A stretch of DNA of 64,000 nucleotides from an uncultured Acidobacteriota bacterium (GCA_963770895.1 CAVYRF010000001.1:1152001-1216000), one strand, 5' to 3'. Positions 2-35,685 are shown, counted from the stretch's first letter. Numbers and translations are program-made. The notes: generated by a model from the letters alone, not told the origin.

Positions 2-1435
2 GCCGAAGCCGCGGCGCTGGCGTCCCGCGCACCGTCCAACCTGCCGGCAGACGGGGCGTCGCCAGAGCAGCCGGCAGCGCCGCCGCCGCACCTGCCGCCG
101 CTGCCCATTGTGGCGCTGCGCGGTCGCCAGCGTTTCGTGCGCGGCAGCGAACGGCTGCACCTGCCCGATGCCGGGCCGAGGCCGGACCAGGCCGGCAGCG
201 GCGCCGGCTTGCTGCGAGGCGGTGCCTACCTGATCGCCGGCGCCGACCGCGGCGCGGGCGAGCCGTTGGCGCAGCACCTGGTGCGCCAGCTGGATGCGCG
301 GGTGGCGCTGGTGATCGCACCCGCCGCCGCCGCCGCGGCGCCGGCGGAGTCCCCAGCCGCCGGGCGCCTGCTGACGCTGGCCGGCGAGGTGGGCGACACC
401 CGCGTGCTGATCGTGCGCGGCGACCCCGCCGACCCGGCAGTGATGGCTGCGGCGGCAGCGCAGGCGGGCGCCCGGTTCGGTGCGCTGCACGGCGCCTTGT
501 GGAGCGGCGGCGTCGCCACCGGCCTGCTGCCCTGGAAGACGGCGGCAGGCCTGCACGCGGCGCTCGACCAGGTGGCGCGCGAGGCCGCGGCGCTGTGCGA
601 CGCCGCCGCGCCCGCGGCGCCGCGGTTCGTGGCATTGCTGGCCACGACCGCGGCGGTCACCGGTGGTGTCGGACTGCTGGAAGAGGCCGCCGCGGGTTCC
701 TACCTGGAAGCCTTCGCCAATCAGCGCGCCAGCGGCGACGGTGTCGCGGAAGCGGTGCCGCCTTGTCCGGTCGTCGCGGTGCATTGGGACCCCTACCAGT
801 GGGGCGGCTGGCTGGTGGCGGAGCTGGGCGCCGGCACCGCGGGGCTGTCGCCGCTGGAGATGGCGGCGATGGTGGCGGAGCAGGGCATCGCGCCCGAGCG
901 CAGCGCCGGCGCCCTGGGCCTGCTGCTGGCCGCGGCGCTGCCGGCGGCGGCGATCTCGGCGGGCGACCTGGCGCTGCTCGCCAGCGAAGCGGACAGCGTG
1001 ACCGCGGACGCCCTGCTCGCCGGCATGGCGGCGCCGGGGGTGCGCTCGCCGCGGCCCGACCTGGCGACGCCGTACGAGGCGCCGCGCGACGAGTTGGAGG
1101 AGAGCCTGGCGGCGCTGTGGCAGGAGCTCTTCGGCATCGAGCCGATCGGCCGCGACGACGTGTTCCTGGACCTGGGCGGCCATTCGCTGCTGGCGATCCA
1201 GATCGTCACCCAGGTGCGCCACCGGCTGCACGTCGACCTGCCGCTGACGGTGCTGTTCGAGGCGCCCACCGTGGCGCAGCTGGCGGCGGCGGTGCGGCGG
1301 GCGCGCGGCGAGGACGACCCGGCCGAGCTCGAGGCGCTGCTGGCGCAGGTCGAGGCGCTGTCGGCGGCGGAGGCCGCCGACAAGCTGGCGCAGCTGGACG
1401 TGCCGGCCGAGGTGCCGGCGGGGGTGGAAGCATGA
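2..1435 (+). CDS. 3' part of a PKS or hybrid PKS-NRPS: degenerate KR domain, carrier domain and C-terminal docking helix (partial; frame open from the window start)
   Basis: KR-like fold (YLIAGADRGAG, VAVHWDPYQW). Carrier with PYEAPRDELE...LGGHSLLA. Acidic tail ELEALLAQVEALSAAEA. No stop codon between position 2 and the GTG at 110. Confidence 0.88.
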   Translation, partial: AEAAALASRAPSNLPADGASPEQPAAPPPHLPPLPIVALRGRQRFVRGSERLHLPDAGPRPDQAGSGAGLLRGGAYLIAGADRGAGEPLAQHLVRQLDARVALVIAPAAAAAAPAESPAAGRLLTLAGEVGDTRVLIVRGDPADPAVMAAAAAQAGARFGALHGALWSGGVATGLLPWKTAAGLHAALDQVAREAAALCDAAAPAAPRFVALLATTAAVTGGVGLLEEAAAGSYLEAFANQRASGDGVAEAVPPCPVVAVHWDPYQWGGWLVAELGAGTAGLSPLEMAAMVAEQGIAPERSAGALGLLLAAALPAAAISAGDLALLASEADSVTADALLAGMAAPGVRSPRPDLATPYEAPRDELEESLAALWQELFGIEPIGRDDVFLDLGGHSLLAIQIVTQVRHRLHVDLPLTVLFEAPTVAQLAAAVRRARGEDDPAELEALLAQVEALSAAEAADKLAQLDVPAEVPAGVEA

Positions 1436-1476
1436 GCGGGCCTGGCGCCAGCCGGACCGCACGAGGTGGGCGATGA
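1432..1476 (+). other. Possible 14-codon bridging mini-ORF (MSGPGASRTARGGR)
   Basis: Its ATG (1432) overlaps the TGA of the upstream gene, and its TGA (1474-1476) overlaps the ATG of the next gene. Both junctions are ATGA overlaps. Confidence 0.35.
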
Positions 1477-3011
1477 GCGTCGCCGAACGCCTGGCGGCGC
1501 TGTCGCCCGAGCAGCGCGCGCTGCTCGACAAGCTGCGCGCCGCCTCCCCGGCGGCAACCGCGTCGCCCGCCTCGCAAGCGTCCCCGACGACCCCGCCAAC
1601 CGGCGCCGGCCAGCAGCAACCGCCGCCGGTGCGGCCGGTGTCGGGGCCGAGCGGGGTCGGCGACTGGCCGCTCAGCTTCGACCAGGAGCGGCTGTGGGGG
1701 CTGCACCAGCAGGTCGACCAGCTGGTGTCGTGGAACGTCGACGCCGGCAGCCGCTTCCGCGGCGGCGCGGTCGACCTGCGGGCGCTGCTGGGCGCGGTGC
1801 ACGCGCTGGTGCGGCGGCACGCGGCGTGGCGCACCACGTTCCCGCTGGTGGACGGCCGGCCGGTGCAGCGGGTGGCGGCGTTCATCCGACCGGCGGCGGC
1901 GGTGATCGACCTGGCGGCGCTGCCCGCCGCCCGCCGCGAGCAGGAGGCGCACACGGCGATCTGGCACCACACGCGCCAGCCGTTCGACCTGGCGCGCGGG
2001 CCGCTGCTGCGCCTGGCCCTGGTGCGGCTGGCGGCCGACGATCATCTCTGCCTGGTGACCCTGCACCACCTGGTGACCGACTGGATCAGCTTCCAGATCT
2101 TCTTCGGCGAGCTGCTGGCGCTCTACCGGCTGCAGCTTGCCGGCCGCGCCGTGCCGCTGCCGCCGCCGGAGGTGCAGTTTCCCGACTATGCGCTGTGGGA
2201 GCGCGACTGGCTGCGCGGCGACGTGCTGGCCGCCGAGCAGGACTTCTGGCGGCGCGAGCTGGCGGGGTTTCCGCTCGCCCTGGACCTGCCGGCGGCGCGG
2301 CCGCGGCCGGCGGTGCAGAGCCAGCGCGGCGGCATGGCGCGGATGGACGCCGGCGCCTCGCGCAGCGCCCGCCTGCGCGCCCTGGCTCGCGCCCAGGGGG
2401 CGACGCCGTTCATGGCGATGCTGGCGCTGCTCTACGCGCTGCTGTGGCGGCTGACCGGCCGCGAACGGCTGGTCGTCGGCTCCAACGGCGCCAACCGCCC
2501 GCGGCCCGAGCTGCAGGGCGTGGCCGGGTTCTTCCTCACCCAGATGCCGTTCGCCGCCGACGTCGGCGGCGATCCCACCTTCCGCGAGCTGCTGGCGCGC
2601 AGCCGGCGGGCGGCGCTGGCCGCCTACGCCCACCAGAACCTGCCGTTCAGCCTCCTGGTGGAGGCGCTGCCGGGCGCCCTCGCTGCCGCCGGCAACGGCC
2701 TGGAGCGCAATCCGGTGGTGCAGGTGATGCTGCTGGTGCTGACGTCGCCGCCGGCGGCGACGGTGCCCGGCGGGCCGACGTTCGAGCCGGTGCCGCTGTA
2801 CGACGGCAACTCGCGCTGGGACCTGATGTTCGGCATCTACGACGACGCCGACCGCGGCCTGGCCGGGGTGGTGGAGTTCAACGCCGACATCCTGGACGCG
2901 CCCCAGGTCGAAGGCTGGGTGGCGCTGCTGGTGCGCTTCATGGACGCGGTGACCGCCGACCCGGGACTGCGGCTGTCGCAGCTGCCGGCGGCTGGTGAGG
3001 TGGCGCGATGA
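1473..3011 (+). CDS. Stand-alone condensation-domain protein with variant active site HHLVTDWIS and an N-terminal docking helix
   Basis: PLSFDQERLW, RHAAWRTTF, PFDLARGPLLR, HHLVTDWIS (2064-2090), HQNLPF. GAGGTGG SD-like sequence before the ATG. No A or T domain. Confidence 0.92.
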   Translation: MSVAERLAALSPEQRALLDKLRAASPAATASPASQASPTTPPTGAGQQQPPPVRPVSGPSGVGDWPLSFDQERLWGLHQQVDQLVSWNVDAGSRFRGGAVDLRALLGAVHALVRRHAAWRTTFPLVDGRPVQRVAAFIRPAAAVIDLAALPAARREQEAHTAIWHHTRQPFDLARGPLLRLALVRLAADDHLCLVTLHHLVTDWISFQIFFGELLALYRLQLAGRAVPLPPPEVQFPDYALWERDWLRGDVLAAEQDFWRRELAGFPLALDLPAARPRPAVQSQRGGMARMDAGASRSARLRALARAQGATPFMAMLALLYALLWRLTGRERLVVGSNGANRPRPELQGVAGFFLTQMPFAADVGGDPTFRELLARSRRAALAAYAHQNLPFSLLVEALPGALAAAGNGLERNPVVQVMLLVLTSPPAATVPGGPTFEPVPLYDGNSRWDLMFGIYDDADRGLAGVVEFNADILDAPQVEGWVALLVRFMDAVTADPGLRLSQLPAAGEVAR

Positions 3012-6000
3012 GCGGCGTCGCCGGCCGCATCGCGGCGCTGTCGCCCGAGCAGCGCGCCCTGTTCGAAAAGCTCCGCCAGCAGCAGCAGCGCGCCGCGCGC
3101 CGCCTCGATCCGCCGCCCATCGCGCGGGTGAGCGGCGCGACGGGGCAGGGCGACTGGCCGCTGTCGCTCGACCAGGAACGCTTCTGGTTCATGGAGCAGC
3201 TGTACTCCAACCATGCCGGCCTCAACATCACCGCCGCCACGCGCCTGCGCGGGCGCCTCGCGGTGCCGCTGCTGGGCAAGGCGCTGGCCGCCGTGGTGCG
3301 CCGCCACGCGGCGTGGCGCACCACCTTCCCGGCGACGGCTGCGGGCGCGCCTTTGCAGCGCGTCGCGCCGCCCGCGGGCAGGGGTGCCGCCGGCGCCGGC
3401 GGTGGCGAGGTGCGGCTGGCGATGATCGACCTGTCGGCGCTGCCGGCGGCGGTGCACGCCGCGCAGGTGTCGCGCCTGGTGGACCAGGACACGGCGGCGC
3501 CGTTCGACCTGGCGCGCGGGCCGCTGGTGCGCGCCCACCTGCTGCGCCTGAGCGCGGTGGATCACGTGTGCGTGCTGACCGTCCACCACCTGGTGACCGA
3601 CTGGATCTCGTTCCAGATCGCCTGGAGCGAGCTGGCGGCGGCCTACCAGGCGCTGGCCGCCGGCCGGCCGGCGGCGCTGCCGGAGCCGCCGGTGCACTAT
3701 CCCGACTTCGCGGTGTGGCAGCGCGCCTGGCTGTCGGGGGAGGTGCTGGCCGAGCTGGAATCCTGGTGGCGCCAGACGCTTGCCGGCGTGCCGCTGGTGC
3801 TCGACCTGCCGCTGGACCGGCCGCGTCCGGCGGTGGCGCGCATGCGCGGCGGCCGGCGGCCGGTGGCGGCGTCGCCCGAGCTTTCCGAGGCGCTGCGGGC
3901 GCTGGGGCGGCGCCACGGCGCCACCCTGTTCATGACCGTGCTGGCGGCGACCGGCGTGCTGATCCATCGCGATTCCGGCCAGGAGCGGCTGGTCCTGGGC
4001 GCCAACAACGCCAACCGCAACCGCCCCGAGATCGAGCCGGTGCTGGGGTGCTTCCTCACCCAGGTGCCCTTCGTGATCGACCTCACCGGCGATCCGGCGT
4101 GGAGCGAGCTGCTGACCCGGGTGCGGCAGTCGGCCCTGGGCTCGTTCGGCCACCAGGACCTGCCGTTCGGCAAGCTGGTGGAGGCGGTGCGGCCGGAGCG
4201 CGACGCCAGCCGCCAGCCGGTGATCCAGACGCTGGTGCAGGTGCTCGACGCCCAGTATTCCAAGGTGGAGATGGCCGGCGTCAGCTTCGAGGCGGTGGAC
4301 TCCTACGACGGCAGGGCGCGCTACGACCTGATGTTGAGCCTGTACGACGCGCCGGGCGGCATCGCCGGGTCGCTGGAGTACGACGCCGACCTGTTCGACG
4401 CGGCGACCGTCGAAAGGATGGTGGAGCGCTTCCTGCTGCAAGCGGCGGCGGCCGCCGCCGATCCCGGCCTGCGCCTGTCGCAGCTGCCGGTGCTGTCGGC
4501 CGCGGCGCGCCATCAGGCTCTCCACGAATGGAACGACACGGAGTGGCCGGCGCCGCCCTGGACGGTGCCGGGACGCATCGCCGCGCAGGCGCTGGCGACG
4601 CCGGACGCCGCGGCGGTGGTCGCCCAGGAAGGCGGCCTGGTGCTCAGCTACGGCGAGTTGGCGCGGCGTGCCGGCGGCCTGGCCGGCGGGCTGCGCGCCG
4701 CGGGAGTCGGCACCGAATCCCGCGTCGCGCTGGCGCTCCAGCGCGGCGCCGACATCCCGCTGGCCATCCTGGCGGTGTGGCTGGCGGGGGGCGCCTACGT
4801 GCCGCTCGACCCTGACTCGCCGCGGGAGCGGCTGGCGCGGTTGCTGGCCGACGCAGCGCCGCGCCTGGTGGTGCATCGCGGACCGCTGCCGGTCGAGCTG
4901 CCGGCGGGGCTGGCCGGCTTCGATCTCGCCGGGTGGGAGCCAGGGGCGGCGGCACCGGGGGAGGCGCCGCCTGCCGCGATGACTCTTCTTGCCGCGGCGT
5001 CCCCCGCCGCCGGTGTGGCGAGCGCCGTGGGCGAGGCGGGCGAGGCGGGCGGCCCGCGCGCCGACCAGCTGGCCTACCTGCTCTACACCTCGGGCACCAC
5101 CGGCCTGCCCAAGGCCGCCATGATCGAGCACGGCGGGCTGGCGGCGATGCTGGCGGCGCTCGGAGAGCGGCTCGACCTGCGTGCCGGCGACCGGGTGCCG
5201 GCGATGGCGCCGTACGTCTTCGACGCGTCGCTGCTGGAGATGTTCCTGCCGCTGCTCGTCGGCGGCGTGGTCGAGGTGCTGAGCGCCGACCAGGTGCTGG
5301 ACCTGGATCGCTTGCTGGCGGCCATGGCGCGCGCCACCCAGGTGCTCACCGTGCCGGCGCAGATGCGCCGCCTGCCGCCCGACCTGGCGGAGCGCCAGCC
5401 GGGGCGCTTCGCCGGCCTGCGCGCGCTGTCGGTGGGCGGCGACGTGGTGACGCCGGATCTGCAAGCCCGGCTGCTGGCGACCTTCCCGGCGGCCGCGCTG
5501 CACGTGATGTACGGCCCGACCGAGATCTCGATCCTCTGCACCGGCTTCCACGTGCCGCGCTGGCGGCCGGCCGAGCGGTCGTTGATCGGCTGGCCGCTGC
5601 CGGGGGTCGAGGCGCTGGTGGTGGACCGCCGGCTGGCTGGAGGCCCCGATGCGCCGGTGGAGCAGGAGGCGGCAGCCGTGTCCGGCCCGCCGGCGGCGAA
5701 CCCCGCGCCGGCCGCACCACCAGCGCCGTTTGCGTTGGTGGCGCCAGGCGTGCCGGGCGAGCTGTGGATCGGCGGCCGCGGCGTGGGGCGCGGCTACTTC
5801 GGCCGCGACCAGCTGACCGCCCAGAAGTTCGTCGTCGCCGGCGGCCGGCGTTTCTACCGCACCGGCGACCTGGTGCGGCAGGTGCACGCCTGGGGCGGCG
5901 CCCTGGAGTTCCTGGCCCGCACCGACCAGCAGGTCAAGGTGCGCGGCGTGCGCGTCGAGCCCGGCGAGGTCGAGGCCGCGCTGCGCGCCCATCCGTCAGT

Positions 6001-9000
6001 GGCCGACGCGGTGGTGGCGGCGCGCCCGGCCGCCGACGGCGAAAACCTGCTGGTCGCCTATTGGGTGGCAGCCGCTCCGGTGGCGCCCGGCGCGGCGAGT
6101 GCGCCCGACCTGCTCACCCACCTGCGCCAGACGCTGCCGGCCGCCCTGGTGCCGGCGGTGCTGGTGCCGCTCGCCGAGCTGCCGCGCAACGCCGCGGGCA
6201 AGGTGGATCGCCAGCGGCTGCCCGTGCCGCCGTCGTTCGCGGCGGGCGGCGCAGCCGGCGCGGCTGGTGGCGATGGCGCCGTCGCGCGCGGCGCCGTCGA
6301 GGAGCTGGTGGCGGGCATCTGGTGCCAGGTGCTGGGGGTGGCGAGCGTGCCGGCGGCGGCGGACTTCTTCGCCCTGGGCGGCCATTCGCTGCTCGCCACC
6401 CAGGTGATCAGCCGCCTGCGCGCGGCCACCGGCGTCGAGCTGCCGGTGCGGGAAATGTTCCAGTCGCCGACCGTCGAAGCGCTGGCGCGGGCGGTCACCG
6501 CCGCCCTGGCCGCGGGCGGCGCCGGCAATGCCGGGGCGATGCCGCCGGCGATCGGCCGCGCCGCCCGCGACGGCGAGCTGCCGCTGTCGTTCGCCCAGGA
6601 ACGGCTCTGGTTCCTGGACCGCCTGGCGCCGGGCAGCGCCGCGTACCACATCCCGGTGGCGCTGCGCGCGCAGGGCGCCCTGTCGCTGCCGGCGATGGCG
6701 GCGGCTCTCGACGCGATGACGCAGCGCCACGAGGCCCTGCGCACGACCTTCGGTGCCAGCCGTGGCGCCGGCGGCGGCGCCGTCGCGGCCGGAGGCGCCG
6801 CGGCGCTGCGCGGCGGCCCGCGCCCGGTCCAGGTGGTGAACGCTCCTGTCGCCGCCGCCCCCCTGCCGGTGATCGACCTGGCAGCCCTGCCGCCGGCCGA
6901 GCGCGAAGCCGAAGCGCGGCGCCTGGTCGACGCCGAGGTGGCGCGCCCGTTCGACCTGGAGCGCGACGCGGTGCTGCGCCAGAGCGCCCTGCGGCTGGGC
7001 GCCGCCGACCACGTGCTGCTGCTGGTGGTCCACCACATCGCCGCCGACGGCTGGTCGATCGGCGTCATGGTGCGCGAGATCACCGCGCTCTACGCCGCCG
7101 CCGTCGCGGCACGGCCGGCGGCGCTGCCACCGCTGCCGGTGCAGTACGCGGACTTCGCGGTGTGGCAGCGGCAATGGCTGCGCGGCGAAGCGCTCGAACG
7201 GCAGCTCGCCTACTGGCGCCGCCGCCTTGCCGCCGCCCCCGCGCTCGACCTGCCGACCGACCGGCCGCGGCCGGCGGCGCAGAGCTTCCGCGGCGCCACC
7301 CGGATGCACGCGGTGCCCGCCGCCACCGCCGCCGCCCTGCGCGAAACGGCGCGGCGCGGCGATGCGACGCTCTTCATGCTGCTGCTGGCCGCCTTCCAGA
7401 CGCTGCTCGGCCGCTACGCCGGCCGCGACGACGTGGTGGTCGGCACGCCGATCGCCAACCGCACGCGCGCCGAGATCGAGCCGCTCATCGGCTTCTTCGT
7501 CAACACCCTGGTGCTGCGCGGCGATCTGGCCGGCGATCCGCCGTTCGGCGAGCTGCTGGCGCGCACCCGGCGCGCCGCGCTGGAAGCCTATTCGCACCAG
7601 GACCTGCCGTTCGAGCGCCTGGTCGAGGAGCTGCGGCCGGAGCGCCGCCTGGCGCACAACCCGCTGTTCCAGGTGATGTTCGCGGTGCAGAACACGCCGC
7701 TCGGCGCGGTCGAGCTGCCGGGCGTCGCCTTCGCCCCGGTCGAGCTGACGTTCCCCGCCACGCGCTTCGACCTGGAGCTGTTCTTCACCGAGGTGGACGG
7801 CGCCCTGGCGGTGCAGCTCACCTACAGCACCGACCTCTTCGATCGCGCCACCATGCTGCGCCTGCTGGGCCACCTCGACCGCCTGCTCGCGGCGCTGCCG
7901 GCCGCCGCGCCCCAGCGGCTGTCGCAGCTCGCCCTGCTGGCGCCCGAGGAGCGCCAGCAGCTGGCCCGCGAGTGGAACGACACCGCGGCTCAGCTGCCCG
8001 CCGCGGGCGTCGCGGCGCGCTTCGCCCACCAGGCCCGCCGCCGCCCCGACGCCGTGGCGCTGTCGTGGGAGGACGGCGAGATCACCTACGCCGAGCTGGC
8101 GCGGCGCGCCGCCGCGGTGGCGGCCGCGCTGCGCAACGCCGGGATCGGCGCCGAAGCCAGGGTGGCGCTCGCGGCGCAGCGTGGGCCGGCCCTGGTGGCC
8201 GGCATCCTCGGCATCCTGGCGGTGGGCGGCGCCTACGTGCCGCTCGATCCGTCGTATCCAACCGAGCGGCTGGCGTTCATGCTCGACGACTCGCAGGCGC
8301 AGGCCGTGCTGGGCGACCCGGAGCTGACCGAAGGCCTGCCCGCCGGCCTGCCGCGGCTGGATCTGACGGCGGCCTTCGCTGGCGGCGGGCAGCCGCAAGC
8401 GGCGTTCGCGCCGCGCGGCGTCGACCTGGACGGGCTCGCCTACGTGATGTACACGTCGGGTTCGACCGGCCGCCCCAAGGGAGTCGGTGTCACCCATCGC
8501 GGCATTCTGCGCCTGGTCGCGGGCGGCGGGTGGCGGGAGCCGCATCCTGGCTCCGACGGCGCCGTCGATGTCGCAAATGGCGCCCATGCCGCCGACGCCG
8601 CCGATTTCGCCAACGCCGCCGGCCGTGCGGAGTGCGCCGACGACCGCATGCCGGGCGCTTTTGTGGAGCTCGGCCCCGGCCAGGTGTTTCTGCAACTGGC
8701 GCCGGTTTCCTTTGACGCATCGACGCTGGAACTGTGGGCGCCGTTGCTGCACGGCGGGCGGCTGGCGATCTTCCCGCCGCGGCGCCCGGCGCTGGCCGAC
8801 CTGGCGCAGGCGGTGGCGCGCTGGGGCGTCAGCTCGCTGTGGCTGACCGCCGGGCTGTTCCACCAAATGGTGGACCACGAGCTGGCATCGCTTGCCGGCT
8901 TGACCCAGCTGCTGGCGGGCGGCGACGTGCTGTCGCCGGCGCACGTGCGGCGGGCGCTCGCCGCGCTGCCTGCGATCACCCTGGTCAACGGCTACGGCCC

Positions 9001-11536
9001 CACCGAGAGCACCACCTTTGCCTGCTGCCACCGCATGCCCGGCGGCAGCCAGGTCGCCGCCGGCAGCGTGCCGCTGGGCAGGCCGATCGGCAACACCCGT
9101 CTCCTGCTGCTCGGCCGCTACGGCGAAGAGCTGCCGGCCGGTGCCTGGGGTGAGCTGTGGATCGGCGGCGACGGCCTGGCCCGCGGTTACGTTGGTCGGC
9201 CCGACCTGACCGCCGCCAGCTTCGCCCCCGACCCCGTGGGCGGTGTGCCAGGGGCGCGCCTCTATCGCACCGGCGACGTGGCACGCTGGCGGGCGGACGG
9301 CACGATCGAGTTCCGCGGCCGGCGTGACGGCCAGGTCAAGGTGCGCGGCTACCGCGTCGAGCTGGGCGAGATCGAAAGCGCCCTGCGCCGCCACCCGCGC
9401 GTCGAGCAGGCGGCGGTCGTGGCCCTGCGCCACCAGGCGCCGGCCGCCGCCGCGGCGGCAGCGGCGGTGCCCCAGCCGCCCGACGGCCAGCCCGCGGTCG
9501 ATGGGGGAGAGCTGCGGCTGGTGGCCTACGTCGTGCCGGCGCCGGTTGCGCCCGCCGCCGTCGGCGCGCCGGACCCGGCGACAGCAGGAGCGGCGGGCGG
9601 CGTTGGCGCGGCAGCGGCAGCGAGTGCAGGAGCGGCCGGCAGCGTAGCCGCCAGTGCGGTAGCGGGAGTGGGAGCAGAAGGCGCCGGCGACTCAGGCGCC
9701 GACGCGGCATCAGGAGCAGGCGCGGGGATCGTCGAGCAGTGGCGCGAGCTGTACGAGCAGACCTATGCGCGCGGCCTGCCGGCCGAGGCGGGCGGCGACG
9801 CCGCGTTCAACGTCCAGGGATGGAACAGCAGCTATACCGGCGAGCCGATCCCGGCCGCCGAGATGCGCGAGTGGCTGGACGGGATCAGCGGCCGGCTGCT
9901 GGCCCTGCCGCACCGGCGGGTCCTGGAGGTGGGCTGCGGCACCGGCCTGCTGCTCTTCCGCGTCGCGCCGCGGGCGGAAAGCTACCGCGGCACCGACTTT
10001 TCGGCGGTGGCGCTGGCGCAGGTGGCGGCCGAAGTGCAGCGGCGCGGCATCGCCGGCGTCCAGCTGGAGCAGCGGCAGGCCAGCGACTGGAGCGGCGTCG
10101 CCCCCGGCAGCGTCGACCTGGTGGTGCTCAACTCCGTGGTGCAGTACTTCCCCAGCGCCGACTACCTGGTGGCAGCGCTCGCCGGCGCCGCGGCGGCGGT
10201 GGCGCCGGGCGGTGCGATCTTCGTCGGCGACGTGCGCAGCCTGCCGCTGTTGCAGGCCTTCCACACGTCGGTCGAGCTGCACGCCGCAGCGGGCACGGTG
10301 TCCGCCGCGGAGCTGGCGCGCCGCGTGCGCCGCGGCATCGCCGGCGAACAGGAGCTGTGCGTCGATCCCGACCTGTTCCGCCAGCTGGCCGCCAGGCTGC
10401 CGGCGGCCACTGCCGTTCAGGTCCAGCTGCATCGCGGCCGCCACGCCAACGAGCTGACGCGGTTCCGCTACGACGTGATCCTGCGGGTCGGCGCCGCGGT
10501 GCCGCCGGCACCGCCGCCAGCACTGCCGCGGCTCGATTGGCGCGCCGAAAAGTTGACGCTGGGCGAGCTGGAGCGGCGCCTGCGCCTGCGGCTCGCCCCA
10601 GGCGAGAGCGCGCGCGACGGCGCGCCGGTGCTCACCGTCTGTGGAGTCCCCAACGCCCGGCTCGCCGCCGAGGCGGTGGCGCTCGAACTGATGGCAGACC
10701 CGGGCACGGTGGCGACGGCGAGCGCGGCCGATCTGCGCGCCGAAGTCGCGCGCCGTCTGGCGGTGCTTGCGGCGGACCCGGCGACGGCGCCGGTCGACCC
10801 GGAAGACCTGTGGGCGTTGGGCGACCGGCTGGGCTGCCAGGCCGAGGTCGGCTGGCCGGCGGACGGCGGCGCCGGGGGCACCCTGGAGGTGCGCTTCCGG
10901 TCCACCGCGCCGGCCGCGGCCCACGCGGCCCCCATGGCCGATACGCCCGCCGCCGCCGCGGCACCCGCCGAGCCTTTACGCTGGGGTGCGTTCACCAACG
11001 ATCCGCTGGCGATCGTCGAACAGCGGCGGCTGGCCGGCGAGCTGCGGCGCCACCTGGACGCGACGCTGCCCGAATACATGGTGCCCGCCGCGTTCGTCGT
11101 GCTGGACGCGCTGCCGCTCACCGCCAACGGCAAGGTCGACCAGGCGGCGCTGCCGCCGCCGGACGCGCCCGGCCAGCAGGCGGAGCGCTGGGTGGCGCCG
11201 GCGACGCCGCTCGAGCGGCTGCTGGCCGAGGTGACCGTCGAGCTGCTGGGGATCGAGCGCGCCGGGCTGCGCGACAACTTCTTCGCCTTGGGTGGCCACT
11301 CGCTGCTGGCCACCCAGCTGGTGTCCCGCCTCACCCAGGAGCACGGCCTGGCGGTGACCTTGCGCATGGTGTTCGACGCCGCCGACCTGGGCGACCTGGC
11401 CGACCGCATCGTCGAGCAGGAGCTGGCGGGCGCCGACGACGAGCTGCTGCAAGCTGCCCTGGGCGAGCTCGACGGCCTGGGCGCGGACGACCTGGAGCTG
11501 GCCGCGCTGGGCGACGCCGCGGAGGCCGAACGATGA
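3008..11536 (+). CDS. Two-module NRPS: C(HHLVTDWIS)-A-T-C-A(N-MT interrupted, Val-type)-T
   Basis: Two full A-motif sets and two GGHSL carriers. MT motifs GWNSSYTG, VLEVGCGTG and LNSVVQYFP lie between A8 and A9. The second A code, read by eye, is DALWLGGTFK (Val-type). Confidence 0.95.
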   Translation: MSGVAGRIAALSPEQRALFEKLRQQQQRAARRLDPPPIARVSGATGQGDWPLSLDQERFWFMEQLYSNHAGLNITAATRLRGRLAVPLLGKALAAVVRRHAAWRTTFPATAAGAPLQRVAPPAGRGAAGAGGGEVRLAMIDLSALPAAVHAAQVSRLVDQDTAAPFDLARGPLVRAHLLRLSAVDHVCVLTVHHLVTDWISFQIAWSELAAAYQALAAGRPAALPEPPVHYPDFAVWQRAWLSGEVLAELESWWRQTLAGVPLVLDLPLDRPRPAVARMRGGRRPVAASPELSEALRALGRRHGATLFMTVLAATGVLIHRDSGQERLVLGANNANRNRPEIEPVLGCFLTQVPFVIDLTGDPAWSELLTRVRQSALGSFGHQDLPFGKLVEAVRPERDASRQPVIQTLVQVLDAQYSKVEMAGVSFEAVDSYDGRARYDLMLSLYDAPGGIAGSLEYDADLFDAATVERMVERFLLQAAAAAADPGLRLSQLPVLSAAARHQALHEWNDTEWPAPPWTVPGRIAAQALATPDAAAVVAQEGGLVLSYGELARRAGGLAGGLRAAGVGTESRVALALQRGADIPLAILAVWLAGGAYVPLDPDSPRERLARLLADAAPRLVVHRGPLPVELPAGLAGFDLAGWEPGAAAPGEAPPAAMTLLAAASPAAGVASAVGEAGEAGGPRADQLAYLLYTSGTTGLPKAAMIEHGGLAAMLAALGERLDLRAGDRVPAMAPYVFDASLLEMFLPLLVGGVVEVLSADQVLDLDRLLAAMARATQVLTVPAQMRRLPPDLAERQPGRFAGLRALSVGGDVVTPDLQARLLATFPAAALHVMYGPTEISILCTGFHVPRWRPAERSLIGWPLPGVEALVVDRRLAGGPDAPVEQEAAAVSGPPAANPAPAAPPAPFALVAPGVPGELWIGGRGVGRGYFGRDQLTAQKFVVAGGRRFYRTGDLVRQVHAWGGALEFLARTDQQVKVRGVRVEPGEVEAALRAHPSVADAVVAARPAADGENLLVAYWVAAAPVAPGAASAPDLLTHLRQTLPAALVPAVLVPLAELPRNAAGKVDRQRLPVPPSFAAGGAAGAAGGDGAVARGAVEELVAGIWCQVLGVASVPAAADFFALGGHSLLATQVISRLRAATGVELPVREMFQSPTVEALARAVTAALAAGGAGNAGAMPPAIGRAARDGELPLSFAQERLWFLDRLAPGSAAYHIPVALRAQGALSLPAMAAALDAMTQRHEALRTTFGASRGAGGGAVAAGGAAALRGGPRPVQVVNAPVAAAPLPVIDLAALPPAEREAEARRLVDAEVARPFDLERDAVLRQSALRLGAADHVLLLVVHHIAADGWSIGVMVREITALYAAAVAARPAALPPLPVQYADFAVWQRQWLRGEALERQLAYWRRRLAAAPALDLPTDRPRPAAQSFRGATRMHAVPAATAAALRETARRGDATLFMLLLAAFQTLLGRYAGRDDVVVGTPIANRTRAEIEPLIGFFVNTLVLRGDLAGDPPFGELLARTRRAALEAYSHQDLPFERLVEELRPERRLAHNPLFQVMFAVQNTPLGAVELPGVAFAPVELTFPATRFDLELFFTEVDGALAVQLTYSTDLFDRATMLRLLGHLDRLLAALPAAAPQRLSQLALLAPEERQQLAREWNDTAAQLPAAGVAARFAHQARRRPDAVALSWEDGEITYAELARRAAAVAAALRNAGIGAEARVALAAQRGPALVAGILGILAVGGAYVPLDPSYPTERLAFMLDDSQAQAVLGDPELTEGLPAGLPRLDLTAAFAGGGQPQAAFAPRGVDLDGLAYVMYTSGSTGRPKGVGVTHRGILRLVAGGGWREPHPGSDGAVDVANGAHAADAADFANAAGRAECADDRMPGAFVELGPGQVFLQLAPVSFDASTLELWAPLLHGGRLAIFPPRRPALADLAQAVARWGVSSLWLTAGLFHQMVDHELASLAGLTQLLAGGDVLSPAHVRRALAALPAITLVNGYGPTESTTFACCHRMPGGSQVAAGSVPLGRPIGNTRLLLLGRYGEELPAGAWGELWIGGDGLARGYVGRPDLTAASFAPDPVGGVPGARLYRTGDVARWRADGTIEFRGRRDGQVKVRGYRVELGEIESALRRHPRVEQAAVVALRHQAPAAAAAAAAVPQPPDGQPAVDGGELRLVAYVVPAPVAPAAVGAPDPATAGAAGGVGAAAAASAGAAGSVAASAVAGVGAEGAGDSGADAASGAGAGIVEQWRELYEQTYARGLPAEAGGDAAFNVQGWNSSYTGEPIPAAEMREWLDGISGRLLALPHRRVLEVGCGTGLLLFRVAPRAESYRGTDFSAVALAQVAAEVQRRGIAGVQLEQRQASDWSGVAPGSVDLVVLNSVVQYFPSADYLVAALAGAAAAVAPGGAIFVGDVRSLPLLQAFHTSVELHAAAGTVSAAELARRVRRGIAGEQELCVDPDLFRQLAARLPAATAVQVQLHRGRHANELTRFRYDVILRVGAAVPPAPPPALPRLDWRAEKLTLGELERRLRLRLAPGESARDGAPVLTVCGVPNARLAAEAVALELMADPGTVATASAADLRAEVARRLAVLAADPATAPVDPEDLWALGDRLGCQAEVGWPADGGAGGTLEVRFRSTAPAAAHAAPMADTPAAAAAPAEPLRWGAFTNDPLAIVEQRRLAGELRRHLDATLPEYMVPAAFVVLDALPLTANGKVDQAALPPPDAPGQQAERWVAPATPLERLLAEVTVELLGIERAGLRDNFFALGGHSLLATQLVSRLTQEHGLAVTLRMVFDAADLGDLADRIVEQELAGADDELLQAALGELDGLGADDLELAALGDAAEAER

Positions 11537-14500: not shown

Positions 14501-17500
14501 GGCGCCTCTACGACGAAACCTACCAAGCCGGCCAGCCCGCCGCGAACGGCGCAGAATCCGCCGGAACACCAGGCACAGCCGCCGGCGAAGCCGGCGAGAG
14601 CGACGCTCCGGCCGATTTCAACCTGCGCGGCTGGAACAGCAGCTACACCGGGCAGGCGATCCCGCCGGAGGAGATGCGCGAATGGGTTGACGGCACGGTC
14701 GAGCGGCTCCTTTCGCTCGCGCCCAGGCGCGTGCTGGAGATCGGCTGCGGCACCGGGCTGCTGCTGTTACGCGTCGCGCCGCATACCGAAAGCTACCTGG
14801 CGACCGACTTCTCGCGCGTCGCGCTCGCCGGCATCCGGCGCCGTCTGGACCAGCCCGGCCGCGACCTGCCCCAGGTGCGCCTGCTGGAGGCCGCCGCCGA
14901 CGACTGGAGCGGCATCCCCGCGGGCGCCTTCGACCTGGTGATCCTCAATTCGGTCGTGCAGTACTTTCCCGGCGTCGACTACCTGCTGCGTGTGCTCGCA
15001 GGCGCCGTGCACGCCCTGGCGCCGGGCGGCGCGATCTTCGTCGGCGACGTGCGCAGCCTGCCGCTGCTGCCGGCGCAGGCTCTTTCCGTCGAGCTGTTTC
15101 AGGCGCCGGACGCCTGCCGCACCGACGACCTGGCGCGGCGGGTGCGGCGGCGGGTGGTGGGCGAAGAGGAGCTTGCCCTCGATCCGCGCTTCTTCGGTGT
15201 GGCGGCGCGCCGCCTGGGCGCGACGCGCGACGCCGCGGTGTTGATCAAGCGAGGCCGCGCCCACAACGAGCTGACGCGCTTCCGCTACGACGCCTTGCTG
15301 CGCTTCGACACCGGCGCCGCGGGCCAGGCCGCGCCGGTCCGCGCGGCGGCATGGCACTCCGTATCCGGCCTGGAGGTGGACGCCGACGGGCTCGATCTGC
15401 CGGCCATCGAAAATCTCCTGCGCGACCTCGCCGCCGGCGGCACCGCTGCCGGCAGCGAGTCCCTGGTCCTGTCGCGCCTGCCCAACGCGCGGCTCGCCGC
15501 CGAGGCCGCGGCGCTCGCACTGCTCGAACGCCACGACCGCGCCGCCGCCACCGCCGGCGAGCTGCGCCAGGCGGCGCACCAGCGCGCGACCGCGGGGGTC
15601 GATCCCGAGGCGCTGTGGCAGCTGGCGCACGCCCACGGCTGGGACGCCGATCTGCTGGTCGAACCCACGGCGCCAGTCCACTTTGCCGCCGTCCTGCGCC
15701 GCCGCGCTCATCCCGCCGGAGCACAGGGCGCCGCGCCCGCATCCGTGCCCGCGTCCGCAGCGTCCGGCGCGCCAGAAGCGCCGCTCGCCGCCGCGGGCCT
15801 GGACACGCTGGCGCTGCAGTCGCTGGCCAACGATCCGCTGCGCGGCCCGCTGGAGCGCCGCCTGGTGCCGGAGCTGCGCCGCGACCTGGCGGCCAGGCTG
15901 CCGGACTACATGGTGCCGGCGGCGTTCGTGCTGCTCGATCGCCTGCCGCTCACCCACAACGGCAAGGTCGACCAGGCGGCCCTGCCAGCGCCGGACGCCC
16001 TGGGCGATGCCAAGCGGGAAGGCACTCCGCCGCACCCCGGCCTTGAGGCCCGCCTGGCCGCGGTATGGGGCGAGCTGCTCGGCATCGCCACCCCCGGCGG
16101 TCAAGCGGGGGAAGCGGGGGAGCCGGGGGCCGCGGCGGCATCGGCCGGCGTGGCCGGCGCGGGCGCCGCGGGCATCGCGCGCGAAGACAACTTCTTCGAG
16201 CTGGGCGGCCACTCGCTGCTGGCAACCCAGCTGGTCTCCCGCCTGCGCACCGTTTTCGGCGTCGACCTGCCGCTGCGGCGGGTGTTCGAAAAGCCGGTCC
16301 TGGCCGACCTGTGCGACGCCCTGGCGCAGGAGCTGGCGGCGCATCCCGAGGCAGCGGCCCTCGTCGCGCTCACCGCGCTGGCCGCGCCCCCGGTCGCCGG
16401 TAACGCCGCCGTCGCCGTCGCCGCCCTCGACCAGCCGGCGGGACCCGTCGAGGCGCCGCTATCGTTTGCCCAGGAGCGCTTCTGGGCCGCCACCCGCGAC
16501 GCGCCCACGGCCTACAACGTGCCGTCGCCGCTGCGCCTGGTCGGCGCCCTGCGCCACCAGGTCGTCGAGCGCTGCTTCGGCGAAGTGCTGCGGCGCCACG
16601 GCACGCTGCGCACCCGCTTCGTCGAGCGCGCGGATGGGGAGCTGCGCCAGGTCGTCGAGCCGCCGCGCCCCTGGCACCTGCCGCAGATCGACCTCAGCCG
16701 CCTGCCCGCCGCCGCCCGCCAGAGCGAAGCGCGGCGGCTGGTCGACGAAGACACCTGCCGGCCCTTCGATCTCGCCGCCGGCAAGGTCTTTCGCGCCGCC
16801 CTGGCCCGGCTCACGCCGGGCGAGCACGTGCTGCTGATCAACGCCCACCACATCGTCGTCGACGGCTGGTCGATGGGCCTGATGGTGGGCGAGCTGACCG
16901 CGCTCTACCACGCCTTTGCCAACGGCCAGGCCTCGCCGCTGCCCGAGCTGACGGCGCGCTACGTCGACCTGGCGCTCGAACAGCGCCAGCGGCTGTCGGG
17001 CGCCGTCCTCGCAGAGCGCCTCGACCTGTGGCAGCGCCGCCTGGCCGGCGCCCCGCCGATGCTCGCCCTGCCCACCGACCGGCCGCGCCCGCTCCATCCC
17101 ACCCATCGCGGCGATCGCATCCGGCGCCTGCTCCCCACCGTCCAGCTGGAGCGCCTGAAGGCGATCAGCAACCGCGCCCGCGCCTCCCTCTACATGACCC
17201 TGCTCGCCGCCCTGGCGCTGGTCCTGGAGCGCGTCACCGGCCAGCACGACATGGTGGTCGGCACACCGCTCGCCGGGCGCCTGCGCGCCGAATCCGAGCC
17301 GCTCATCGGCGTCTTTCTGAACATGCTGCCGTTGCGCGTCGACCTGACCGGCAGCCACAGCTTCGCGGAGCTCCTGCCGCGCGTCCGCAAGACCGTCCTG
17401 GAAGGCTTCGAAAACCAGGAGGTCCCCTTCGAGCCCCTGCTGCGGCGCCTGGGCCTGCGCCGCCAGGCCTCGCACTACCCGCTGTTCCAGATCACCCTCA

Positions 17501-17742: not shown

Positions 17743-17871
17743 ATCGCTGCGCGGTTCGGCAAGTCCCGCCTGCCGCCCCTTCCGGCACTTCCATAGTGCC
17801 GCCCCCACAGCCGCAGAATTCAACCTTCCTTCGTGGGCGGAGGCCGGGAGCCGAATGCAAGGACCGGGAGG

Positions 17872-34798: not shown

Positions 34799-35685
34799 TC
34801 ATCCGCCCCTCCCCAGACTGCCAGGAGGGCGAGCACACGCCGGCGCCTCTCGCCGGCACCGCACGAGTGAGAACCCCGCCTTCACGCCAGGTCGGTTCGC
34901 CGCGTCGCCCCGATCGCGAAGCGCCTGGCGGCGCGTGCGCAATCGGGGCCGGGGCGACAATACTTCATGCCACTTCCTCAATTCCGGCACATCCAAGTAA
35001 CCCCAAGACATATCGCCAAACCGCAGCTCTCGTAGGTTATTCCTCGGAAGCCGTACAACATGACTGAGGGGTCCTGCTTGTCGCGGCAAGTGATGGTACA
35101 CCTCATAAGCCAGGATGTCGGCCGCCTGTAGCGCCACGAACTCCCGCTCGTTCTCAAATCGCAGAGAAAGGAGGCGGAGGTTGTTCTTTTGTAAGGGGTC
35201 TTGCTCGTTTTCCTGAAACAGCTTCAGGCTGACGCCAGCGCCGCTTGCTCCACTTTCAAAAGTATATGCAATTTGAGCGGCTGGCGCCTTTGCCCTAACA
35301 AGCTTGGCCGCGTCCATAAAGCAGGCCATGGCGGCCAGCCGTACGCGCCCCCAGTGAGCTGTTTCGCTCCCTCAGAGAAAATCGAGTCAAATTCTTTTTT
35401 GGGAACCGCAATGCCAACGCTGCCAAGCGTGTGCCTCTTAACGATGTCAACTAGCCTGGAGTATCTAGCGCGCCTTTCATTGTGAGTCCAGGATTTATAT
35501 GGCTCAACCCGAGTGGAGCAAAAATCCACCATGTGAAACATGTCAAGCCCAAGCTCCGCCAGCGCGAGTTTCCACTCTGTCTCATAATCGAGCCACAACT
35601 CTTGGGTTGATATATATCCTGCCACGCTCAATACTCTTGAGCGTTGATGTGTTCCGCTCTCATCAAAATAGGCTTCAAGAATCAC
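34799..35685 (-). pseudogene. DUF3800-like protein, frameshifted (or sequencing error)
   Basis: The N-terminal ORF 35224-35685 has AYFDESG...VAGY and the C-terminal ORF 34799-35329 has LQAADILAYE, the two hallmark motifs of this family. Adding one base near 35338 joins GGAYG to LAAMACFMD. Confidence 0.75.
34885..34952. repeat. 68-bp palindromic (REP-like) element, copy 1
   Basis: cgccaggtcggttcgccgcgtcgccccgatcgcgaagcgcctggcggcgcgtgcgcaatcggggccgg. It is 64/68 identical to 36635-36702 and has inverted arms gccccgat...atcggggc. Confidence 0.85.

Follow-up and report, generated by a model that had tools for sequence, protein, structure and literature searches.

A stand-alone condensation domain conserved at a PKS-to-NRPS junction of uncultured Acidobacteria

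Tandem and free-standing C domains in known systems and in the present locus

Two consecutive condensation (C) domains precede a single A-T pair in the fungal PKS-NRPS PfaA of the PF1163A pathway, which is arranged as ACP-C1-C2-A-T. Both C domains are reported to be needed and a single amide bond is expected; the His and Asp of C1 are essential, and C2 carries HP and tolerates point mutations (PMC11731387). In icosalide biosynthesis, as described in PMC10510592, two consecutive C domains also stand before one A-T and each has a catalytic job, the second, of the starter type, introducing another fatty acyl chain. Bamb_5915 of the enacyloxin pathway and VibH are free-standing C domains in which an N-terminal docking element reads the C-terminal tail of a carrier (PMC9113145), and both end their assembly line on a free or shuttle-bound acceptor. 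The same source describes one N-terminal helix before a C domain and a two-helix tail after a carrier for the PAX proteins PaxB and PaxC (PMC9113145), a three-helix bundle in which the single helix inserts between the pair of the tail.

The locus compared here lies in a 64,000-nt stretch from an uncultured Acidobacteriota bacterium (GCA_963770895.1, CAVYRF010000001.1:1152001-1216000), referred to as the window; all coordinates are for the plus strand. The window starts inside the upstream PKS gene (gene A), which is read in frame 2 and ends in KR-ACP and a tail. A frame-1 ORF at 1-1476 was rejected as the upstream protein because its translation was Arg-rich nonsense. The KR is weak (39 bits, Pfam). 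The ACP (carrier) domain (1103..1294; Pfam PP-binding, 60 bits) carries the motif GGHSLLA with its Ser codon at nt 1184, and is followed by an acidic C-terminal tail (1301..1435, stop codon included) that begins ARGEDDPAELEALLAQVEALSAAEAADKLAQL, has two predicted helical stretches and is presumed to be a docking element. Gene B (1473..3011) encodes a stand-alone (orphan) C domain of 512 aa, with a single Pfam Condensation match in its translation (E 5.3e-67; residues 65-504 against profile positions 5-444 of 456). A putative docking helix at its N-terminus, RLAALSPEQRALLDKLR (1488..1538), also seen as helices in the model, leads into a disordered Pro/Ala/Ser-rich linker that runs to about nt 1658. 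The catalytic motif HHLVTDWIS lies at 2064..2090, with HHLVTD as residues 198-203, and the protein stops 8 residues past the LSQLP end of the C domain with no tail. Gene C (3008-11536), whose start overlaps the gene B stop in ATGA, has the domain order C-A-T-C-A(MT)-T (Pfam). Its N-terminal helix (nt 3026-3076) and first C domain, the embedded paralogue of gene B, occupy 3008..4519, with the catalytic motif at nt 3584-3610; the remainder (4520..11536; Pfam and domain map) consists of A-T-C-A(MT)-T and an acidic C-terminal tail, and supplies the acceptor carrier T1.

Gene B belongs to the NRPS condensation superfamily (PF00668, a CAT-like pseudo-dimer) by its profile match, its HHxxxD motif and the two-lobed fold of its model. 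In the AlphaFold2 model (pLDDT 81, pTM 0.82) short helices span residues 3-8 and 12-24, and residues 25-45 have pLDDT below 50. The top Foldseek matches listed were all NRPS condensation-family chains (C, X and CT; TM 0.64-0.77), the best being the Txo2 C domain (6p1j; E 7.5e-39, TM 0.73, 35% identity), and phmmer gave 249 bits against Txo2. Gene B shares PF00668, the fold, HHxxxD and the C1-motif Arg with the LCL C domains of Txo2 and Txo1 (teixobactin), TycC6 and DhbF. It differs from them in standing alone without A-T, in fixed deviations and in a remodelled helix α1, and when the same PDB chains were searched, it scored about 100 bits below an ordinary window C domain. The match to 6cgo, which we take to be the Bamb_5915 structure, reached only E 1.3e-11. 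Bamb_5915 uses a β-hairpin docking domain. Domains of this kind have an αββαα fold of about 60-70 aa, whereas gene B gave no Pfam match to TubC_N (PF18563) at E 0.01 and its modelled N-terminus has only two short helices ahead of disorder; moreover, a long NRPS follows gene B, unlike the situation for Bamb_5915 and VibH. The numbers of helical elements predicted here would fit a PAX-type pair, with the pairing itself a prediction; no sequence match of the gene B helix or tail elements to any solved docking domain or pair was detectable.

The domain order of PfaA is exactly that of one relative, L019, and in the window it is split over genes A, B and C. However, PfaA is fungal and a single polypeptide, with homology seen at the domain-family level only, and its C2 lacks the second His, whereas the embedded C keeps HH, and the whole HHxxxD, after the free copy in 41 of 41 loci. 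An HP state like that of PfaA C2 was found only at a separate C|C junction of the window, from gene D to gene E. Unlike the icosalide tandem, both members of the window pair belong as paralogues to a single LCL-like clade, and the analysis showed no second acyl source.

A C-domain subtype and its conservation

Gene B and the first C domain of gene C are 48% identical by BLASTP (E 1e-137) and 50% identical in pairwise alignments, in which their identity to the window's 13 other full-length C domains is 32-46% (a 16th, split by an insertion, was excluded). The stretch HHLVTDWISFQI is present in both (nt 2064-2090 and nt 3584-3610), together with WPLS(F/L)DQER, RHAAWRTTF, FLTQ(M/V)PF, the pairs GSNGANR/GANNANR and YDGNSRWDL/YDGRARYDL, and the N-terminal helix R(L/I)AALSPEQRAL (nt 1488-1538 and nt 3026-3076). 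All 6 deviant motifs occurred in these two domains and in 0 of the 13 others. A sequence-only reading of the window had claimed that the stand-alone C and the first NRPS C share deviant motifs, and every element that it listed was seen in the translations. One of them, the missing G after HHxxxD, is a property of the pair without being unique to it, for HHVAADWWS at the end of gene E and HHIVADFWS at the start of gene F lack the G too.

The same reading had proposed a distinct C subtype, and the trees bear this out. Both odd domains fell in a clade apart from ordinary LCL-like C domains, comprising 36 of 66 rows (SH-aLRT 100) in one tree and 121 of 245 rows in another. The free copies formed a single clade in FastTree (48 of 49, support 100), again in IQ-TREE (12 of 12, support 97) and in a smaller tree (8 of 8, support 98), and in the FastTree tree the embedded C sits in a 54-row clade of subunit-N-terminal C domains. 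In the 66-row tree the odd-domain clade grouped with ordinary carrier-following domains, with a support-100 branch separating it from four post-epimerase (DCL-like) domains. An Arg in the C1 motif (QxRLW; R2577) is reported to mark LCL domains, with Gly in DCL domains (PMC8097023); the gene B clade carries this LCL-type Arg as R73, which is found in 96% of free and 98% of embedded copies. A starter (lipo-initiation) role does not fit the domain, since in 41 of 42 loci NRPS modules and a PKS module come before it. Of the 72 embedded-type domains, 31 do not come straight after a free C; they occupy other subunit N-termini, where what precedes them is a carrier (NRPS or other), an A remnant or the end of a contig. 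None of the 72 is internal after a carrier. The embedded subtype is therefore not specific to the PKS junction.

Homologues of gene B were found in 119 listed clusters (57-69% identity, 467-643 aa). Every source-named cluster among them is from Thermoanaerobaculia or Acidobacteriota, and the related loci are all from Acidobacteriota MAGs. Where a full KS lies upstream, the first C domain after the PKS ACP is a gene B orthologue in 41 of 42 loci, a proportion that overstates generality among all PKS-NRPS junctions of these bacteria because the loci were collected with the free C as bait. Homologous clusters thus do not routinely lack the stand-alone copy; such a lack would have told against the earlier proposal, as would a place for both domains inside a characterised clade of ordinary chemistry, and neither was seen in the loci and trees covered here. 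An embedded-type C lies within 821 nt of the free C in 37 of 41 loci, the NRPS continuing directly. In the exceptional locus L044 there is no free C and a C-A-T-C-A(MT)-T subunit comes straight after the same PKS, which indicates that the free copy is not structurally indispensable for PKS-to-NRPS hand-over.

The catalytic motif HHxxxD followed by W is present in 49 of 49 gene B orthologues, and in a 19-sequence alignment of free copies R73, W75 and many active-site motif residues were invariant or nearly so. In a comparison of 150 random pairs drawn from 36 loci, the free C, the next C and the KS had median identities of 0.64, 0.57 and 0.715 and dN/dS values of 0.38, 0.49 and 0.36, respectively; extreme GC3 probably compresses dS in these estimates, and the pairs are not independent of one another. 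The free copy is under purifying selection and constrained like the KS domain. Moreover, its identity tracks that of the KS (Spearman 0.41, p 2e-7) and showed no significant correlation with that of the following C (Spearman 0.13), indicating that the free C co-diverges with the PKS and not with the following NRPS. The stand-alone C domain is conserved and under selection as a component of this gene-cluster family, which belongs to uncultured soil Acidobacteria.

Docking elements, helix α1 and traces of a lost module

Three relatives (L019, L029 and L032) encode the PKS and the free C as a single reading frame, in which the ACP tail is kept as an internal linker. These three fused forms lack the N-terminal helix that the split orthologues have. 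The tail motif A(R/K)GE..PE.LEALLA.VEGLSPEEAA.KLAE was conserved across the listed PKS tails of 15 loci. The natural fusions lend independent support to the predicted docking of the free copy on this tail. On the other hand, the near-identical helices of gene B and gene C had been taken earlier as a sign of a shared upstream carrier, and this argument did not survive. The ordinary C domain that begins gene D (11533-) has a similar helix, RLAGLSREQRALLFEQVR, at its N-terminus, so the helix is not special to the two odd domains. A near-identical helix was found on essentially every subunit-N-terminal C of the clade, including those after ordinary NRPS carriers, whose tails are quite different, and the same helix stands opposite at least three different tail types. 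Because the helix is generic, also on domains after very different tails, its similarity is not proof of the same carrier.

Helix α1 of gene B (residues 73-80, RLWGLHQQ; 1689..1712) is remodelled in the alignment at what would be the acceptor-carrier face. In the free clade, position 76 is R (78%) or Q (14%) and position 80 is E (45%) or D (39%). Embedded domains have F at position 76 in 97% and L at position 80 in 98% of cases; for ordinary domains the figures are 76% and 91%. Both positions were non-hydrophobic in 45 of 47 free copies as against 1 of 166 other C domains, and the embedded C retains the hydrophobic helix. These positions correspond to acceptor-PCP contacts in FscG C3 (PMC8097023), a mapping that relies on one crystal structure and on alignment via the C1 motif. 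Other fixed deviations of the free clade are D70, A117/A118, the W after HHxxxD, N338 and LTQxPF, together with Q243E and loss of R408.

In five loci (L009, L010, L013, L035 and L050), and likewise in 22 of the 119 listed clusters, a stub of some 120 aa comes after the free C domain; it aligns at 36-48% identity with the opening ~100 residues of genuine A domains. In L019, which reads KS-AT-ACP-C-C-A-T in one frame (4 Condensation stretches in the scanned region, Pfam), the start of a C-A linker (AERQAL) runs directly into the next C domain. The vestigial A stubs and the three PKS fusions together indicate that gene B is in all probability a remnant, the C domain left over from a C-A-T module once located immediately behind the PKS.

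Candidate roles of the free C domain

The central question is the reason why the assembly line keeps an orphan C domain beside an ordinary-looking copy. As to which of the two makes the bond, and by what chemistry, we infer a role for gene B from the comparisons above: it may catalyse PKS-to-NRPS chain transfer in trans, alone or as one of two catalysts, a reading that we hold with a little less than even confidence. The N-terminal helix of gene B would bind the acidic tail behind the PKS carrier and so recruit the protein to the PKS. Gene B would then move the PKS-bound chain onto the amino acid on T1 of the next NRPS subunit, acting on T1 in trans via its remodelled polar acceptor face, and the embedded C of gene C would stay as a platform for its own A-T, possibly still active. 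Against gene B as the catalyst, the embedded C appears fully competent and could form the bond unaided. In that case the free C might carry out a second, tailoring or branching reaction on the carrier-bound chain. It might use a second acyl donor to acylate the β-hydroxyl or some other nucleophile, giving a second chain start as in icosalide, or it might dehydrate or cyclise the PKS product. That both C domains have intact catalytic motifs would be explained by two separate reactions, and the remodelled face could suit the PKS ACP as the 'acceptor' carrier. The icosalide tandem is reported to perform a second lipo-initiation and ester formation (PMC10510592), dehydrating C-family proteins have been described (10.64898/2026.07.17.738954), and no DH domain was detected in the PKS module in 6 of 6 stretches scanned. 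However, no extra acyl-activating gene, carrier or stand-alone A-T was found beside the genes in the window or in the mapped 10-kb flanks. The free C is also kept in the two of six scanned relatives in which no KR was detected at E 1e-5 (L015 and L019), so a β-hydroxyl role would not be uniform, and the acceptor amino acid is not conserved (31 different strings of pocket residues in the following A domain in 40 loci), which argues against a side-chain-specific second acylation. A tailoring role thus appears rather doubtful.

Release of the PKS intermediate is another possibility, the free C condensing it with a soluble amine or alcohol in competition with gene C. The canonical hydrophobic acceptor-carrier contacts are lost in the free C, as this would allow, and after the free C of L007 comes a NACHT-TPR gene on the opposite strand, with no NRPS within 3 kb. 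In the zeamine pathway, a stand-alone C domain reportedly releases a carrier-bound intermediate onto a soluble acceptor. A stand-alone C with such a role is also described for enacyloxin, Bamb_5915 (PMC9113145). Such off-loading is nevertheless unlikely: the free C of L019 is in line between the ACP and the next C-A-T in one polypeptide, 37 of 41 loci go straight on to an NRPS, and the LCL-type Arg that gates the acceptor channel, said to favour aminoacyl-pantetheine (PMC8097023), is retained. Alternatively, the two C domains could share the single A-T of the next module and insert the same amino acid twice, preserving an ancestral two-module product after loss of an A-T. The origin of the free C from a module that lost its A-T would agree with this, and the C-C-A-T first module of MgpC has been suggested to add two threonines (PMC11411415). 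That scheme is itself a proposal only, the second carrier needed for a second residue is not present, and the remodelled acceptor face is not predicted by such iterative use, which we regard as quite improbable. The intact motifs also bear on whether the free C is a catalyst at all. PKS modules are dimers with two tails, and a non-catalytic free C, with a helix nearly identical to that of the NRPS, might scaffold the junction by filling the second tail or by pairing with the embedded C. One C-terminal docking motif is reported to recruit more than one partner in other systems (PMC9113145). The invariance of HHxxxD in all 49 orthologues and near-invariance of R73 and W75 would be unexpected in a mere scaffold, and the known scaffold-like C domains (PfaA C2 and the first C of gene E) have lost the second His, so an adaptor is improbable. 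Simple decay is already disfavoured. Module erosion is common here, as in the A stubs after the free C and the truncated or missing A domains of gene F, but 49 distinct sequences from ~50 genomes keep an intact frame and motif with a KS-like dN/dS, and clade-specific substitutions (Q243E, loss of R408) are fixed at sites 97-100% conserved in other C domains; a relic without function is hardly credible.

A second orphan C domain of the window bears on the proposed catalytic role of gene B. It lies C-terminal in gene D (16447..17742; HHIVVDGWS) without an A-T of its own, and its α1, QERFWAATRD, is the sole other case with both positions non-hydrophobic among the 213 C domains scored. The C domain that follows it, at the N-terminus of gene E (17917..19290), has the second catalytic His replaced by Pro (HPIVGDGWS; codons CAT CCC, nt 18331). 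Since this partner reads HP, a single-base difference without an orthologue to confirm it, the orphan C must be the catalyst at the gene D/E junction. Elsewhere in the window, gene F contains modules with a truncated A domain or none.

Gene order and the stand-alone C domain

The window (G+C ~76%) carries one long plus-strand run of assembly-line genes, in which phmmer, queried with a C domain taken from the window itself, counted 16 C domains. Gene A, the 3′ end of a PKS (KR-ACP, plus strand, frame 2), ends at nt 1435; the longest ORF listed at the left edge, 1-1476 in frame 1, is spurious, an Arg/Gly/Ala-rich misreading of this high-GC gene, whose real frame is 2-1435. Gene A is followed on the same strand by gene B, a stand-alone C domain (nt 1473-3011), gene C with the order C-A-T-C-A(MT)-T (nt 3008-11536), gene D with C-A(MT)-T-C (nt 11533-17742), gene E, an NRPS-PKS-NRPS hybrid whose last domain is a C domain (nt 17833-34635), and, beyond a 3.7-kb stretch of lower G+C, gene F (nt 38368-60477). 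Genes B and C, and genes C and D, overlap by ATGA with the stop within the start (3008-3011 and 11533-11536), which suggests translational coupling of the gene B, C and D proteins.

Gene B encodes 512 aa. A short helix and a disordered linker lead into its only domain, a Condensation domain (Pfam E 5e-67). The sequence-only reading had listed a set of motifs for gene B and the first C domain of gene C, and every one of them was common to both translations. These two odd domains share 48% identity (E 1e-137; 50% in separate pairwise alignments). Pairwise identity of both to the 13 other full-length C domains of the window, a comparison that leaves out a C domain split by an insertion, was 32-46%, and all six motifs occurred together in both odd domains and in 0 of the 13. 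The missing Gly after HHxxxD was also seen in both, but it is not exclusive to them, as two further C domains of the window lack it likewise. Residues were compared among 49 free copies (gene B and its orthologues), 58 embedded-main domains (the paralogue type at the N-terminus of gene C) and 80 ordinary internal domains. In this comparison the motifs turned out to be clade-wide signatures common to the free and embedded types, with signature positions W65, D70, A117, A118, Q208, N338, L355-T356-Q357, P359, F360, D444 and R448.

Distribution, phylogeny and origin

In a collection of 5.8 billion proteins, at least 119 other clusters were found among the 120 listed matches. They were 57-69% identical to gene B over essentially the whole length (467-643 aa), and wherever the source names a taxon for the 119 listed clusters it is always Thermoanaerobaculia or Acidobacteriota. 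The best 120 matches of a search for longer proteins, none above 52% identity, were without exception NRPSs with several C domains and lacked PKS families; they were uninformative on fusion frequency. The ESM Atlas gave generic 'condensation domain' clusters only, and literature searches, supplementary material aside, turned up no description of this arrangement in Acidobacteria.

One genome per species was then scanned with an alignment of 19 free-C proteins as query, yielding 62 loci (L numbers below) from ~52 MAGs, all Acidobacteriota, of which 39 were titled Thermoanaerobaculia and 5 Holophagae. All loci were mapped by phmmer with the window's own domains, a rough map in which some A domains were missed and some NRPS carriers were labelled 'ACP'. 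The first C domain past the PKS carrier was of the free type in 41 of the 42 loci with a full-length KS and of the embedded type in L044. An embedded-type C-A-T lay no more than 821 nt downstream of the free C domain in 37 of 41 loci. Elsewhere, a DUF5674 gene and a TPR gene (11478-15217) stand between free C and NRPS in L003, the contig end cuts L031, and the remaining ~3 kb past the free C domain holds no NRPS in L007 and L046; in L007 a NACHT-TPR (STAND-type) gene (11608-14340) lies on the opposite, minus strand past the free C domain. Because the free C domain was the bait, these fractions tell that the arrangement is stable where present, not how common it is among all junctions. Three further arrangements were seen. 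In L016 (10145-12913) the free and embedded C domains share one frame with the helix between them, possibly through a lost stop codon, since this is a long-read assembly. Two ordinary C domains stand back to back in L040 (18519-21470), and a terminal C domain is followed by an embedded-type N-terminal one in L051 (3372-4862).

The FastTree phylogeny covered every distinct C domain that reached 380 aa (245 in total). In it 48 of the 49 free copies formed one clade with support 100; taken together, the free and embedded types fell into clades of 107 (support 99) and 121 rows (support 100), separate from the ordinary domains. An IQ-TREE analysis of 66 rows (LG+C20 PMSF, short search, SH-aLRT) gave monophyly of 12/12 free copies (SH-aLRT 97) beside a clade of 17 embedded-type domains (SH-aLRT 99), with five more domains carrying HH(I/V)xxD motifs outside both; the 36 rows concerned sat on a branch with support 100, separate from the ordinary LCL-like domains and from four post-epimerase domains. 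Within the embedded clade, domains that follow a free C domain were intermixed with domains that open other NRPS subunits. The embedded subtype is best read as an 'N-terminal, in-trans' lineage of LCL-like domains that is not PKS-specific, because 0 of 72 embedded-type domains stood in the same frame after a carrier and all were subunit N-termini, save two in frame after a free C domain. By sequence and predicted fold, the solved structures nearest to gene B were the ordinary LCL domains of Txo2, Txo1, DhbF and TycC6; against the same PDB chains an ordinary C domain of the window scored ~100 bits above gene B.

The free C domain is the descendant of a full module, as judged from A-domain stubs, a fragment in L046 and a linker in L019. 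At least 22 of the 119 listed clusters, plus L009, L010, L013, L035 and L050, carry ~120 extra C-terminal residues, and this stub is 36-48% identical to the N-terminal ~100 residues of true A domains. The basal free copy of L046 has a different A-domain fragment, and in L019 the next C domain begins right where the first residues of a C-A linker (AERQAL) end. In the free-copy tree the stub-bearing copies formed two pairs (2 changes) nested in a 24-row subclade that includes the window, and therefore the stub must have been lost several times. Complete C-A-T modules were found in L044, directly behind the same PKS, and in L043. These two branch beside the free clade (SH-aLRT 97), a grouping that was named after the tree was seen. 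This sister placement is not secured, because the AU test (27 rows, LG+G4) did not reject L044/L043 with the embedded clade (p 0.134).

HHxxxD was intact and directly followed by W in 49/49 free copies, and was intact in 41/41 following C domains and 31/31 other N-terminal ones. Divergence was compared in 150 random, non-independent pairs drawn from the 36 loci with a free C, next C and KS. Median protein identities were 0.64 for the free C, 0.57 for the next C and 0.715 for the KS, and the Nei-Gojobori dN/dS values were 0.38, 0.49 and 0.36, respectively; as the extreme codon bias probably compresses dS, these dN/dS values are meaningful only when the domains are set against each other. In these non-independent pairs, free-C identity correlated with KS identity (Spearman 0.41, p 2e-7) and not with next-C identity (Spearman 0.13, p 0.10). 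For the A domain after the free C domain, nine pocket positions gave 31 different strings in 40 loci, a rough extraction with positions set from motif anchors in GrsA-PheA numbering and with one row misaligned. Given the identity correlations and the variable pocket strings, the PKS and the free C domain make up a travelling cassette, behind which the NRPS is exchanged. The free C domain is under selection and belongs to the PKS. Acylation of a side-chain nucleophile on a fixed acceptor residue by the free C domain was rejected, since the roughly extracted pocket strings vary.

Putative docking helices, acceptor face and possible roles

The upstream PKS carrier ends in an acidic tail and gene B has none, as the sequence-only reading had stated. 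This tail is strongly conserved across loci (A(R/K)GE..PE.LEALLA.VEGLSPEEAA.KLAE). The same reading had taken near-identical N-terminal helices on both odd domains as a sign that both dock on this one carrier. The helices are indeed nearly the same, but they are not special to these two domains, as the ordinary C domain that opens gene D has a similar one. Across the clade the helix DRL.AL.PEQRALFE.LR is nearly the same on all N-terminal C domains and also occurs after NRPS carriers with at least two quite different tail types. Helix similarity is therefore uninformative on the choice of partner, and in these clusters it does not by itself predict it. On the other hand, in L019, L029 and L032 the free C domain and the PKS share one reading frame; there the free-C N-terminal helix is gone and the tail persists as a linker, as would be expected if helix and tail dock on each other where the proteins are separate. 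The next subunit still has its helix in L029 and L032, though the free C domain there provides no tail. For this helix, the most evident candidate partner would be the internal tail, a pattern consistent with the idea of both proteins sitting on the PKS tail. With one helix at the N-terminus and two helical stretches in the tail, these elements look similar to docking of the PAX three-helix type (PMC9113145). Searches for solved docking pairs gave no sequence match, with tail and helix retrieving only carrier domains and designed helical proteins from the PDB. A β-hairpin docking domain in gene B was discarded, as no PF18563 hit was obtained and the model has helices at 3-8 and 12-24, then disorder.

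The free clade differs at sites that are near-invariant elsewhere: Q243 is changed to E (Q in 97-100% of others), D389 to N, F76 to R or Q, and L80 to E or D, and R408 is lost (R in 98-100% of others). In the FscG PCP2-C3 structures the C1-motif Arg R2577 gates the acceptor channel, and W2579, L2580 and V2584 of helix α1, the acceptor-carrier face, touch the acceptor carrier (PMC8097023). Through QxRLW these four residues would correspond to gene B residues 73, 75, 76 and 80. R73 and W75 are retained in the free clade. Of the 47 free copies that match the motif, 45 have non-hydrophobic residues at both 76 and 80; of 166 other C domains, 163 have hydrophobic residues at both. The sole domain among these 166 with both positions changed is the C-terminal C domain of gene D, which is the second C domain in the window that has no A-T of its own. 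The complete modules close to the free clade (L044, L043 and L045) keep F76 and L80. We infer that a polar helix α1 is the sequence signature of orphan status, that is, of a C domain without its own A and T domains. For genome mining, a C domain lacking A and T with this signature should not be counted as a broken module.

Gene D thus ends in an intact C domain without A and T (HHIVVDGWS, helix α1 QERFWAATRD; junction 16447-19290). The first C domain of gene E reads HPIVGDGWS, with Pro for the second catalytic His (CAT CCC at nt 18331), and the gene E N-terminus, which reads ...YRLSPVNEGMLSFAQERLW, has no PEQRAL-type helix. If the Pro is real, only the orphan C domain of gene D could make the bond between D and E, and it would have to work in trans on the first gene E carrier. 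This junction parallels fungal PfaA (ACP-C1-C2-A-T), whose C2 is also of the HP type. PfaA is the one junction of this kind with experimental data: C1 required both its His and its Asp, point mutations of the HP-bearing C2 were tolerated and its deletion was not, and both domains were needed for apparently one amide bond (PMC11731387).

We tentatively read gene B as a donor-side PKS specialist performing in-trans transfer onto T1, the first carrier of gene C, a role that is quite possible, though we would stop short of calling it probable. Gene B would dock on the ACP tail, or be fused to the PKS there; the PKS-bound chain would enter its donor site and be condensed in trans with the aminoacyl group on T1, and the embedded C domain would be the partner of its own A-T. 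Doubt about this role arises because the embedded C domain is intact in every locus with a canonical acceptor face, and because L044 shows that an embedded-type domain can directly follow the PKS. The free C domain might instead act on the chain a second time, by branching as in icosalide or by dehydration; this is unlikely, and the weak or absent KR matches weaken the case for a dehydratase role tied to the KR. It is improbable that the free C domain off-loads the chain, and a purely structural function is judged equally improbable. Iterative use, with one A-T serving twice, has been proposed for MgpC (PMC11411415) and appears quite improbable here; that the free C domain is a functionless relic is hardly credible.

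A broader proposal, which we regard as doubtful, is that in-trans condensation at these junctions takes place at a two-C station, an undescribed junction type in which a C domain lacking A and T belongs to the upstream partner and is paired with the C domain that opens the next subunit. The former would be docked on, or fused to, the upstream partner's tail and would make the inter-subunit bond through its remodelled polar acceptor face. If true, this logic would cover both PKS/C/C-A-T (genes A, B and C) and T-C/C(HP)-A-T (genes D and E). Tandem C domains at PKS-to-NRPS and NRPS junctions are reported puzzles, with a different logic proposed for MgpC and for icosalide. If paralogous C domains heterodimerise on the dimeric PKS tail, each with its own step, they would be a natural split tandem C, the split counterpart of the unexplained tandem C domains of the PfaA, icosalide and megapolipeptin synthetases. 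The same arrangement exists in three natural states in ~50 genomes (three separate proteins, partly fused and fully fused), and the evolutionary path from module to stub to orphan C domain is clear. Together with the helix α1 signature, these make the question directly testable with small soluble proteins.

Further features of genes E and F

In the internal PKS module of gene E, the AT domain motif reads GHGLGE (22708-22725). Acyltransferases normally carry GHSxG. The active-site Ser thus appears to be replaced by Gly, and this AT may be inactive. The C domain that closes gene E (33262-34635) is very divergent (HHVAADWWS), with a branch longer than any other in the trees. Since non-NRPS genes come next, it may be a terminal domain for chain release. 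The region between genes E and F (34800-38300) has a lower G+C (63-69%) and holds, on the minus strand, a winged-helix protein of the HVO_A0114/MarR-like type (35816-36403) and an amidohydrolase (36816-38150); a second amidohydrolase (PF04909) lies on the plus strand at 62221-63180. No stand-alone A-T able to complete a split module was found, the non-NRPS stretches of the window giving only the winged-helix protein and the amidohydrolases. Genes A-E and gene F may be two separate clusters.

Gene F starts (38368-40400) with a carrier-like stretch and a C domain with HHIVADFWS, without Gly after HHxxxD, an arrangement suggestive of acyl-starter loading. Its modules are eroded at 47257-49693, yet the 7369-aa frame is open. 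Past the C domain with its motif at nt 46324, only an A-domain fragment precedes the carrier (Ser motif nt 47698), and the module after that lacks an A domain altogether, its C domain being followed by the carrier (nt 49417). For the 7 carriers of gene F, A3 core motifs turned up at only 4 places.
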